Below are positions 31,231 to 33,831 of a stretch of DNA of 64,000 nt, in pieces. Where the stretch lies: IMG/VR virus record IMGVR_UViG_3300010352_001405, positions 32,001 through 96,000 of that record; one strand, given 5' to 3'. Made by a program: the position numbers and the translations under genes. Source of the stretch: a virus. Lineage: Duplodnaviria; Caudoviricetes. Every line of letters begins with the position of its first letter. The first letter of the stretch is position 1. Below the pieces are notes generated by a model. The model searched no databases, was not told where the DNA came from, and worked only from the letters and a program-made list of their open reading frames with translations.

Positions 31231-31638
31231 ATGAACAACAATTTTTTTAATGACACTATAAAAAAAGAAGAAGTAATTATTCCACAAACGGATACAAAAT
31301 CCAATCCTTTTATTGAGGTAGAATCAGTGGATGTTAAAACAAAACATGATGTTGTAGAAGAAAAACTCAATGGAGTTAAATACAATCAAACAAATATAAT
31401 GGAACTTAATCATATCAATCAAACATATGATGATGGGAAAATTGTTATATTCGATGATTTTAATTTACAAATAAAAGATATTGCTGATAGAGGACAGTTC
31501 ATTGCAATAATCGGAGAATCCGGGTGCGGAAAATGTTTTTCTAAAAATAGTTTTATAACAATAAGAAATAAAAAAACTCAAAAAATAGAAAAAATTAAAG
31601 CAGATGATTTTATAAAACGTTTACGAAAACCGAATTAA
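31231..31638 (+). CDS. ABC ATPase N-extein (101 aa) plus split-intein IntN (34 aa, from 31534)
   Basis: Walker A GESGCGK directly followed by CFSKNSFITIR..., then stop. Confidence 0.9.
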   Translation: MNNNFFNDTIKKEEVIIPQTDTKSNPFIEVESVDVKTKHDVVEEKLNGVKYNQTNIMELNHINQTYDDGKIVIFDDFNLQIKDIADRGQFIAIIGESGCGKCFSKNSFITIRNKKTQKIEKIKADDFIKRLRKPN

Positions 31639-31684
31639 CCAAATACGACATTATTATTTAAATATATTATAATTAAAAAAATAT

Positions 31685-32779
31685 ATGATATTTAAATATG
31701 CTTCTCATGAATTTGAACAGGATAATATACCACAGTGTAATATATGTAATGGTAAACTTATTATTAAATTAAGAAAAAAACGCAAACCAATAAAATATGA
31801 ATATTATCAGTTATATGGGTGTACAAATTGTAATTTGAATAATAGATATTTAAAATGGAAGTCATTATTACCGAAGGAATTATATAATAAGATAAAATTA
31901 ATGTATAGTAACCAATTGGTTAAAAATCATATATTCAATATAAATAATTATTTAAAAAAGGGATATAGTGAAGAAGATGCAAAAAAAATAATATCTAATA
32001 TACAAAAAGAAAATTCAAGTAAGGTTAAAAATAGATTTAAAAGCACTAATTATAATTTAAAAAAAATAGGATATACAGAAGTTCAGATAAAAAATATGAG
32101 AATTGGTCCAAACCAAATAAAATATTGGACAAAAAAAGGATATAATGAAGATGATGCTAAAATTAAAATATCAGAACATCAATCTAAAATAGCTAAAGGT
32201 ACCGTTAGAAAAGGAACCGGAAAATATCCAAATCAAATTGAATACTGGATAAAAAAAGGATATAACGAAAATGATGCAATAAAAAAAATTAGTGAAAGAC
32301 AATCCACATTCAATTTAAAAAAATGTATAGAAAAATATGGTGAAATTGAAGGTAAACAAAAGTGGTTAGATAGACAAGAAAAATGGATGAAAAACTATAA
32401 AAAGAGTAATTTTTCAAAAATTAGTCAAGAACTATTTTGGCAAATATATGATAAAATAAATAAAAATGACGAAATATATTTCGCAACATTAAAAGATAAA
32501 ATGAAAGATGATAGCGGGTGTAATAATGAATACAAATTGAAATTGAAAAATAAAGTTTTAAGTCCTGATTTCTTTGTTAAAAATAAAAATAAAATAATAG
32601 AATTTGACGGAACTTATTATCATAGAACTATTCCAGAAAATAAAAAAAGAGATATAATAAGAGACATTATTATTAAAGAGAATGGATATGATATACTACA
32701 CGTTAATGAAAGTGAATATAAAGAAAATCCAAAGAAAATTATAAATGATTGTTTTAATTTTTTAAATGATTTAATATGA
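31685..32779 (+). CDS. Free-standing Vsr-like/EDxHD-type homing endonuclease inside the fractured ABC ATPase gene
   Basis: YW.KKGY repeats, CIEKYGEIEG, PDFF...IIEFDGTYYH, GYDILHVNESEY. Confidence 0.8.
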   Translation: MIFKYASHEFEQDNIPQCNICNGKLIIKLRKKRKPIKYEYYQLYGCTNCNLNNRYLKWKSLLPKELYNKIKLMYSNQLVKNHIFNINNYLKKGYSEEDAKKIISNIQKENSSKVKNRFKSTNYNLKKIGYTEVQIKNMRIGPNQIKYWTKKGYNEDDAKIKISEHQSKIAKGTVRKGTGKYPNQIEYWIKKGYNENDAIKKISERQSTFNLKKCIEKYGEIEGKQKWLDRQEKWMKNYKKSNFSKISQELFWQIYDKINKNDEIYFATLKDKMKDDSGCNNEYKLKLKNKVLSPDFFVKNKNKIIEFDGTYYHRTIPENKKRDIIRDIIIKENGYDILHVNESEYKENPKKIINDCFNFLNDLI

Positions 32780-33831
32780 GAAAATATACAGAAACTATAT
32801 GTAATTCCGATTATGAAATATTGACAGACGTTGGATTCGTTGATATAAAATCAATATCTATAACCATACCTTATATTACTTGGATATTGAAAACAGAAAA
32901 TTTTGAATTAAAATGTGCTGATACTCACATAGTATTTGATGATAATATGAACGAAATCTTCGTCAAGAATTTGAAAATAAATGATTTAATTTTTACTATA
33001 AATGGAATAGAAAAAGTCATATCCATAATAGAAACTGATCATGAAGAAAATATGATTGATATTGAATTATCTGAAAAATCAGAAAAAAGATTTTTTGTCA
33101 ATGGAATATTATCACATAATAGCACTCTATTAAGATATATTGCAGGATTACAAACTCCAACAAGTGGTGAAATTCTTTTAAATGGAAACCCACTTACTGA
33201 AAAAGAACATATACCTATGGTTTTTCAACAATATTCATCATTTCCTTGGTATTCTGTTTTAGAAAATATTGCTCTTCCTTTGATTTTAAATAAAACTCCA
33301 AAAAAAGAAGCAAGAGAAAGAGCTATGGAAATGATTAAAATTGTTGGTTTAGAAGGACATGAAAATAAATATGCTAAATATCCATTATTATCGGGTGGTC
33401 AATTACAGAGAGTAGCCATAGCGAGAAATCTTGTCGCTAATTCGAGTATTCTTTTAATGGATGAACCATTTGGGGCGTTGGATATAGTAACACGTAGATC
33501 AATGCAGGTTTTTTTAAGAAAAATCTTTCAGGACAATAACAAAATAGATCCCACTGTTATTCTTGTAACACATGATATTAGAGAAGCTATATTTTTATCA
33601 ACAGATATATTTATTCTAGATGCAAATCCAGCCAATGTGAGATGTCATATTGAAGTGGATCTCCCCGATGTGAGAGATATACATCTTAAAAGAGAATCAA
33701 AATTTTTAGAATATGTTAATTTTATTGAGGATTTCATGGAAAAACTAGAAGTTGAAAATGAAGCAAAAAAAACAAAGAAAGTAATAGAACAAAAAAAGAA
33801 AAAAGGTAATTTTTTATTTAAACCAGTATGA
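32776..33831 (+). CDS. Split-intein IntC (115 aa, to 33120) plus ABC ATPase C-extein (TauB/SsuB-like)
   Basis: CADTH block, NGILSHN|STLLRYIAGL, LSGGQ, LLMDEPFGALD, VTHD. Confidence 0.92.
   Translation: MRKYTETICNSDYEILTDVGFVDIKSISITIPYITWILKTENFELKCADTHIVFDDNMNEIFVKNLKINDLIFTINGIEKVISIIETDHEENMIDIELSEKSEKRFFVNGILSHNSTLLRYIAGLQTPTSGEILLNGNPLTEKEHIPMVFQQYSSFPWYSVLENIALPLILNKTPKKEARERAMEMIKIVGLEGHENKYAKYPLLSGGQLQRVAIARNLVANSSILLMDEPFGALDIVTRRSMQVFLRKIFQDNNKIDPTVILVTHDIREAIFLSTDIFILDANPANVRCHIEVDLPDVRDIHLKRESKFLEYVNFIEDFMEKLEVENEAKKTKKVIEQKKKKGNFLFKPV

Follow-up and report, generated by a model that had tools for sequence, protein, structure and literature searches.

An atypically split intein and a free-standing endonuclease gene interrupt the Walker A codons of a phage ABC transporter ATPase

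In a 64,000-nucleotide stretch of the Caudoviricetes virus record IMGVR_UViG_3300010352_001405 (positions 32,001 to 96,000 of that record; the whole stretch is called the window below), the gene for the ATPase of an ATP-binding cassette (ABC) transporter is fractured into two open reading frames (ORFs), A and C, with a third one, ORF B, located between them (Table 1). ORF A encodes the N-extein and, directly after GESGCGK, a 34-amino-acid (aa) N-terminal intein half (IntN), which has the sequence CFSKNSFITIRNKKTQKIEKIKADDFIKRLRKPN (CFSKNSF...RKPN). A spacer of 46 nt separates ORF A from the endonuclease gene ORF B, and the TGA stop codon of the latter overlaps as ATGA, at 32776-32779, with the ATG of ORF C, which encodes the C-terminal intein half (IntC) and the C-extein. 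When the exteins of 101 and 236 aa are joined they give a 337-aa ABC ATPase, in which Walker A (GESGCGKS), the Q-loop, LSGGQ, Walker B (ILLMDEP), the D-loop (GALD), and the H-loop (VTHD) follow each other in order. The Pfam family ABC_tran matches both gene halves, weakly at residues 86-118 of ORF A and with an E value of 2.9e-21 at residues 116-232 of ORF C. The best NCBIfam match of the C-extein is the taurine ABC ATP-binding subunit (3.9e-45), and IMG labels relatives of the ATPase as NitT/TauT. Judged by these matches, the joined exteins are a NitT/TauT-type ABC transporter ATPase. An earlier note on this DNA had described a 34-aa IntN and a 115-aa IntC reconstituting a 337-aa ATPase with intact motifs, and an overlap of the IntC start with the endonuclease stop; every coordinate and count of that description holds, and the overlap is present.

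Table 1. Coordinates of the fractured ATPase gene, of its operon, and of related fractured genes in the same record (window positions unless stated otherwise)
Feature	Coordinates	Strand	Content or evidence
ORF A, 135 aa, frame 1	31231-31638	+	N-extein and IntN, TAA stop
N-extein, 101 aa, ends IIGESGCGK (Walker A)	31231-31533	+	Translation; PHROG ABC transporter 6.4e-09; aligns to uninterrupted L001 ATPase
IntN, 34 aa (Cys1...N34), and TAA stop	31534-31638	+	Strands 1-2 and helix 1 of HINT fold
ORF B, free-standing homing-endonuclease gene, 364 aa, frame 2	31685-32779	+	Between intein-tagged halves, same strand
ORF C, 351 aa, frame 1	32776-33831	+	IntC and C-extein, own ATG
IntC, 115 aa, ends GILSHN	32776-33120	+	Block B CADTH (His51), block F Asp95, block G His114-Asn115
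C-extein, 236 aa, starts STLLRYIAGL	33121-33831	+	Ser+1 completes Walker A (GK-S-T); Q-loop, LSGGQ, Walker B, D-loop, H-loop; Pfam ABC_tran 2.9e-21
Substrate-binding protein: NMT1/SsuA-like domain and OmpA/Pal-like peptidoglycan-binding domain	28761-30317	+	Pfam OmpA 3.8e-14, NMT1_2 1.8e-05; NCBIfam SsuA_fam and Pal-type matches
ABC permease, TauC/SsuC/SaoP-like	30391-31227	+	Pfam BPD_transp_1 1.9e-12; NCBIfam SaoP 4e-25, TauC 6e-18 (both below cut-off)
DnaB-type helicase cut at GETNVGK|C...SHN|S: 38-aa IntN, 373-aa endonuclease, 120-aa IntC	49426-52391	+	ORFs
TerL N-half ending SRQVGK, then C and 54-aa IntN-like tail, then paralogous endonuclease (43% identity)	59241-60805	+	ORFs
L004, ClpB-like AAA+ gene cut at GPTGVGK|C...SHN|T; 382-aa endonuclease	G000:C1:153657-156998, outside window	-	Same intein family

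The insertion point was located by comparison with an uninterrupted gene. The 385-aa ATPase of the 735-kb uncultured phage LR756501.1 is 73% identical to the joined exteins and aligns with them without gaps over residues 44-329, across the junction; the C-extein is 78% identical to the L001 allele. Because the empty allele of LR756501.1 reads GQSGCGK-STILRYIAG, the insertion point lies between the lysine and the serine of Walker A. Intein-free alleles thus exist, and in-frame removal of the intein restores the motif. The fractured layout with the endonuclease gene between the halves is repeated in the 2-kb contig L011 and in the DnaB-type and ClpB-like genes of the same 163-kb record. The three-ORF anatomy together with its motifs is far beyond chance, because the uninterrupted allele matches at the exact junction and the layout is repeated in independent contigs. 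Two trivial origins of the split were ruled out. An alternative genetic code cannot explain it, because long ORFs of the window terminate at each of the three stop codons, TAA (39), TGA (6), and TAG (1). A contiguous intein broken by a sequencing error is incompatible with the location of the endonuclease in another frame and with the repetition of the split in the L010, L011, DnaB, and ClpB loci. A promoter scan performed at chance level (47 sites found, 42 expected), and therefore the ACGACA-17-TATAAT site upstream of the endonuclease gene is no evidence.

At default thresholds neither Pfam nor PHROGs called an intein in ORF A or ORF C, and IntN alone as a query gave only a weak match to Ataxin-1 AXH (E 0.22), which was taken as chance. 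The single IntC sequence, compared with the sequences of the Protein Data Bank (PDB), already pointed to gp41-1 and CatC. An IntC profile built from six sequences and run against the same database matched inteins only, which were VidaL (2.1e-08), gp41-1 (1.2e-07), CatC (2.7e-04), and NrdJ-1 (5.3e-04). The AlphaFold2 model of IntC, which was based on 38 relatives, had a predicted local distance difference test score (pLDDT) of 92 and a predicted template modeling score (pTM) of 0.82. Searches with this model using Foldseek and VIA-align returned inteins and Hint domains only, including all 50 of the top 50 VIA-align rows (Z 10.4-15.3). The model was aligned to VidaL over 108 residues with a root-mean-square deviation (rmsd) of 2.1 A (Z 15.3), to CatC, the IntC of the consensus atypically split TerL intein, over 107 of 118 residues with an rmsd of 1.9 A (Z 13.7), and to gp41-1 with a Z score of 13.7. 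Because model residues 1-7 pair with about residues 18-40 of complete inteins, IntC appears to miss only the N-terminal part of the fold. No variation was seen at His51, Asp95, or His114 when 38, 90, and 57 relatives were aligned, and Asn115 is invariant or nearly so. A cysteine at position 1, directly after the N-extein, is also present in L010 and L011, in the DnaB and ClpB-like paralogues, and in the TerL N-half, and the +1 residue is serine or threonine in 143 of the 144 family representatives.

The relation between the two halves is illustrated by P0153, a TerL protein with a contiguous mini-intein of the same family. Its residues 98-127 are 60% identical to the IntN that follows GK in ORF A (E 1e-08) and its residues 150-253 are 56% identical to the IntC of the ABC ATPase (E 3e-36), with the IntN-like and the IntC-like parts lying in one chain about 22 residues apart. 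In the structure model of P0153, the segment 100-252 can be superposed on solved inteins beginning with their residue 1 (VidaL, Z 18.9, 138/145 residues), and the flanks align to the ATPase domain of T4 gp17 (Z 30). The part equivalent to IntN contains two strands (106-111 and 117-121) and a helix (122-128), after which a linker of low pLDDT (block 131-140, mean 55) is located at the exact point where the ABC intein is split. Homology to this model places the split of the ABC intein in the loop after helix 1, which is the S2 position as defined in PMC13014065. The sizes of the two halves, 34 aa for IntN and 115 aa for IntC on separate polypeptides, are those of an S2-type split, for which an IntN of up to about 40 aa and an IntC exceeding 100 aa are expected. 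These sequence and model data suggest that the element is a genuine and probably active class-1 HINT intein, which is atypically split and accompanied by a homing endonuclease.

The protein encoded by ORF B has a C-terminal Vsr/DUF559-like nuclease domain at about 32567-32764 (Pfam DUF559 23.7 bits, cut-off 20.6; MTES_1575 9e-07). It has an N-terminal pair of cysteines and three YW.KKGY..E.. repeats, the alignment with its paralogues shows this pair and repeated YW.KKGY..E motifs, and Glu306, Gly309, and His313 in the motif IIEF.G..YH are invariant in five endonuclease paralogues. Three paralogues, with 36-43% identity to ORF B, are encoded in the same 163-kb record, each between the halves of another fractured P-loop gene, which are those of the DnaB-type helicase, of TerL (N-half only), and of the ClpB-like AAA+ protein. 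The single endonuclease sequence gave noise only when compared with the PDB, and the I-Bth0305I chain was absent from the results of the PDB sequence searches with the endonuclease. The endonucleases of the ABC lineage, which are those of the window and of L011, share an 18-aa deletion and the variant EFDG.YYHR, which suggests that this endonuclease lineage travelled with the ABC insertion site.

Orthologous loci were sought with a degenerate DNA motif spanning the junction SHN|STILRYI, which retrieved L010 and L011. A homologue search with ORF A returned only ORF A itself, a protein-based scan of viral contigs gave only a truncated ABC gene and a DnaB locus, and the ESM Atlas gave ordinary ABC clusters only. 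The L011 contig has the three-ORF layout with a 34-aa IntN, a 361-aa endonuclease, and IntC. The 132-kb contig L010 contains the same operon, a 34-aa IntN at the junction GKSGCGK|CFTMD, and IntC, and the halves are separated by only 424 bp, which hold a frameshifted remnant of the C-terminal domain of the endonuclease (tblastn 2.5e-15). The related loci therefore represent three stages of homing, which are the empty site, the intein with an endonuclease, and the intein with a decayed endonuclease. In the comparison between the window and L010, the ratio of nonsynonymous to synonymous substitution rates (dN/dS) was 0.068 for IntC and 0.117 for the C-extein. The constraint on IntC in a locus where the endonuclease is dead suggests a continuing need for splicing and hence for the ATPase.

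The fractured gene is the last one of an operon for a binding protein, a permease, and the ATPase, with the permease gene directly upstream. The operon is present with an uninterrupted ATPase gene in LR756501 and in the Prevotella Lak megaphages A1 and B5; the earlier note had proposed to look for uninterrupted alleles in relatives. The binding-protein and TauC-like permease genes, which are conserved across the huge phages LR756501, the Lak megaphages, and that of the window, are located at 28761-31227 in the window, 3027-5517 in L001, 790-3734 in L007, 15-3641 in L008, and 2972-5458 in L010. The fusion of an SsuA-like with an OmpA/Pal domain is also found in LR756501, Lak-A1/B5, and L010. 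The suggestion that the operon is conserved enough among related phages for homing agrees with these uninterrupted alleles and with the intein-bearing ones, which were found in at least six further protein clusters. Between the binding-protein and permease genes, at 30339-30363 of the window, there is a G+C-rich hairpin followed by a T run, which could make the membrane and ATPase subunits less strongly expressed than the binding protein. Right after the ATPase gene, at 33903-34163, there is an 86-aa ORF with a CPKCG...C..C pattern, which matched no Pfam family.

The anatomy, the HINT fold, the conservation of the splicing blocks, the purifying selection, the empty allele, and the allele with a decayed endonuclease point to a mobile split intein with a homing-endonuclease gene, which is inserted in the Walker A codons of a phage NitT/TauT-type importer ATPase between the Lys and Ser of GxxGxGK|ST. 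We give this reading, which is based on sequence comparisons and structure models, a probability of about 85%. It agrees with the proposal of the earlier note that an atypically split intein interrupts a TauB/SsuB-like ATPase with a free-standing endonuclease in between, since motifs, fold, empty allele, and orthologous loci are all in accord with it. Splicing itself, the activity of the endonuclease, and its target are what we infer beyond these observations. Transcription of the operon would run through the element, and three proteins would be made, which are the N-extein with IntN (135 aa), the endonuclease (364 aa), and IntC with the C-extein (351 aa), the last one being translationally coupled to the endonuclease through the ATGA overlap. 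The 34-aa IntN, consisting of two strands and helix 1, would dock on the largely pre-formed 115-aa IntC to complete the HINT domain. Class-1 trans-splicing would then proceed by the acyl shift at Cys1, the attack of Ser+1, and the cyclization of Asn115, and the resulting Lys101-Ser bond would restore the P-loop of the 337-aa ATPase. The endonuclease would cut intein-free alleles in co-infecting relatives, into which the element would be copied by homing.

Several observations weigh against this reading. The Pfam model Intein_splicing (PF14890) scores IntC at 13.1 bits (E 0.087), far below the cut-off of 35.8, although IntC can hold only the C-terminal blocks of that model. On the other hand, 53 of the 147 family representatives match PF14890 at E <= 1e-4, the best of them with an E value of 2.4e-18. 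Because its own score is below the cut-off, the membership of IntC is founded on the profile, the fold, and the relatives that pass PF14890. A profile of five endonuclease sequences matched the catalytic region of Vsr (1vsr/1cw0) only marginally (E about 0.13), and, as judged from its 18-aa deletion and a shifted acidic residue relative to the paralogues, the endonuclease of the ABC lineage may be less active. The dN/dS of IntN was only moderately low, 0.38 against L010 and about 0.9 against L011, in a comparison that covers 34 codons and in which dS is unreliable at 25% GC.

The strong constraint on the split intein after the loss of the endonuclease in L010 could also be explained if the element is kept because trans-splicing gates the importer, for example by redox state or by the timing of infection, and not by selfishness alone. 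This would be in line with the potential redox sensitivity of Cys1 and with the conditional splicing of other P-loop inteins, documented for RadA (PMC4513877) and DnaB (PMC6195587). Such constraint is, on the other hand, also expected of a selfish intein, the imprecise loss of which kills the host gene, and intein-free alleles function in close relatives, which makes a regulatory role of the element unlikely. Still less probable is that the element broke a dispensable ATPase gene, the halves of which no longer splice, so that the phage uses the ATPase of its host or no importer at all. ABC importers are accessory genes in phages, and the constraint on IntN is weak in the more distant comparison, but the two exteins and IntC have remained intact, with purifying selection acting on them (dN/dS 0.07-0.12), also in L010 with its decayed endonuclease. 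Every conserved splicing-block residue and every ABC motif has been kept, and the same state persists in lineages where IntC has diverged to 58-78% identity. Finally, it is very improbable that the intein halves merely hold the two ATPase pieces together and that the P-loop works without the Lys-Ser peptide bond, because, even though split-intein halves associate tightly and a fragmented phage ribonucleotide reductase is on record as being assembled by interaction domains of a mobile element (PMC3045599), a HINT domain of about 150 residues wedged into the Walker A loop would prevent nucleotides from binding, and mere association needs no invariant Cys1, block B His, block F Asp, His-Asn, and Ser+1.

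The mobile split intein of the ABC ATPase gene belongs to a family with many hosts. A word-based search with IntC gave 346 proteins, and hosts were tallied from the 120 matches listed, each of which has SHN followed by S or T at residues 114-148. The hosts in this list were ABC ATPase, DnaB, ClpB-like, ClpX-like (in Lak megaphages), TerL, clamp-loader-like, and other AAA proteins, and the ABC ATPases formed seven clusters, two of which are the window's own. The tree of IntC sequences groups the inteins by host, with 9 label changes (minimum 8, mean of shuffled labels 26.7). Five of the ABC inteins form a clade with 99/98 support, while the sixth, P0008, has no resolved place. A profile search of 1.84 billion representatives gave 1513 clusters at E <= 1e-3, including 204 at E <= 1e-30. 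Among the best 150 of the 1513 clusters, IntC is N-terminal (split) in 118 and internal (contiguous) in 26, and six received no placement in the motif scan. Position +1 of these inteins is occupied by T in 94 cases, by S in 49, and by C in one. Pfam families were tallied for 147 of these best 150, and the most frequent was Terminase_6N (75), with DnaB_C (18), AAA_2 (7), AAA (6), and ABC_tran (2) also present, and PIF1, a KaiC-type protein, and Gp44_lid as single cases. One member, P0171, is a second, different ABC ATPase lineage with an N-terminal IntC and the +1 context TSLLHCLSGIYTPT, which suggests either a separate invasion or an old divergence.

Nearly all copies of the family are located at the Walker A GK|S/T of unrelated P-loop NTPases. 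A Walker A location is not universal in the family, since some TerL proteins such as P0126 bear further members at another site, where the +1 residue is Cys. In P0126, P0153, and P0222, which are T4-type TerL proteins, a contiguous member at Walker A is combined with an additional IntN-like tail that ends the protein at a later site, and in P0126 there is a second contiguous copy, the one with Cys at +1, so that members of a single intein family interrupt these terminase genes at several points. The extein DNA around the insertion sites has little in common between hosts beyond GGN...GGNAAR, which suggests that host switches are rare and that each is followed by adaptation. It is a somewhat less than even possibility that the ABC intein is one branch of a very large and mostly undescribed huge-phage family of inteins whose split is natural and atypical, which has repeatedly jumped from one Walker A loop to another among non-homologous NTPases and in which each branch has evolved with its own Vsr-like endonuclease. 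At the same tentative level, its Walker A hosts would be TerL, DnaB, ClpX-like, ClpB-like, clamp loader, PIF1, and KaiC-like proteins and two ABC lineages. If this were true, phages would have their own version of the transfers between P-loops described in Anaeramoeba, and the family would be a source of over a hundred inteins that combine a short IntN with Ser/Thr at +1.

Further fractured P-loop genes of the same record carry members of this family (Table 1). In the DnaB-type locus, IntC is 50% identical to that of the ABC ATPase and the endonuclease is a paralogue of ORF B. The same DnaB split is found in the viral contig L006 (4135-6062) without an endonuclease, with only about 100 bp between the halves. 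No IntC partner for the TerL N-half was found in the 163-kb record apart from the IntCs of ABC, DnaB, and ClpB. The C-terminal ORF of the ClpB-like locus L004 contains a second, contiguous large intein (MKG|CFTPD...SVHN|SPPGYVGY).

These data bear on how unusual the transporter gene is as a host. The earlier note had considered a transporter ATPase an unusual host, and this stands insofar as ABC proteins account for only 2 of the 147 tallied representatives, while the expectation that the choice of host is itself exceptional is weakened by the preference of the family for GK|S/T of many P-loop NTPases. Because family copies sit at this motif in unrelated NTPases, the ABC ATPase can be regarded as one more P-loop target. 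Elements composed of an intein and an endonuclease are not confined to genes of replication, repair, and packaging, and any P-loop ATPase on a huge phage genome, including that of a solute importer, can be colonized. The locus also offers a clean natural series for a single site, which consists of an empty allele, an intein with a live endonuclease, and an intein with a decayed one. For annotation, it means that a transporter gene of a huge phage is not necessarily a pseudogene when it is seen as two truncated ORFs. For protein engineering, the family provides many natural split inteins with a short IntN, Lys at -1, and Ser/Thr at +1, and the gain is one of breadth and not of kind. The attraction of the short IntN for protein semisynthesis, which had been pointed out earlier, is in this respect only partly upheld, because the family adds natural short IntNs but no new tool, as IntNs of 15-37 aa have been published (PMC11766414, PMC13014065).

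The type of element is already known, and only its transporter host is unusual. The locus is a fractured gene in the sense of Dassa 2009 (PMC2677866), with a split after helix 1 like those of AceL-TerL and GOS-TerL. As in the window, the fractured genes described there consist of a host gene in two ORFs on the same strand, which carry the halves of a split intein, with a free-standing Vsr-like endonuclease gene in between; they come mainly from phage and metagenomic DNA, and frames overlap at the ORF borders. The Vsr-like family (EDxHD) was present in half of those fractured genes (PMC2677866) and was later proved active as I-Bth0305I. The hosts differ from that in the window, as they were gp41, IMPDH, DnaE, NrdA, NrdJ, and ligase, which serve DNA synthesis or repair, and terminase, and most of the inteins had a long IntN and the canonical split position. 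The text of that paper contains none of the words ABC, P-loop, and Walker. A literature search found no paper linking inteins with ABC transporters, which is a weak absence given that the supplementary tables of Novikova 2016 were outside the search, and papers on huge phages mention the fragmentation of genes by introns and inteins in general terms only.

Among inteins with a short IntN, the closest in architecture are AceL-TerL, GOS-TerL, and Cat-TerL, which share with the window intein the S2 split, the Cys1 nucleophile, and the phage or metagenomic origin (PMC11766414, PMC13014065; PDB 6dsl). The IntN and IntC lengths of GOS-TerL, 37 and 115 aa, are close to the 34 and 115 aa in the window (PMC11766414), and the natural IntNs of AceL-TerL, GOS-TerL, VidaL, and PolB16 are 25, 37, 16, and 15 aa long (PMC11766414, PMC13014065). 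The TerL inteins have Cys at +1 and a terminase host, whereas the window intein has the Walker A Ser at +1 and an ABC ATPase host. The identity between CatC and the window IntC is about 20%, and its profile match (E 2.7e-04) is weaker than those of VidaL and gp41-1 (PDB 6vgv, 6qaz), which are the closest solved relatives both by profile and by fold and come from phage-type metagenomic sources. These two are split at other positions, VidaL earlier, after strand 2, with a 16-aa IntN, and gp41-1 at the canonical position, which leaves it a long IntN (PMC13014065). The insertion site itself is a known one for inteins, as the P-loop is a hot spot that includes DnaB site b, MCM site a, and RFC-S site a (Novikova 2016, PMC4760082), and in Anaeramoeba inteins are reported to have moved from the P-loop of one protein to that of another, unrelated one (PMC10710043). 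The main texts of these two papers do not mention ABC or transporter. Their inteins resemble the family in the window in the insertion at Walker A and in the presence of related inteins in non-homologous P-loop proteins, while they differ from it in being contiguous and cellular, where the family in the window is split, phage-borne, and associated with a separate Vsr-like endonuclease.

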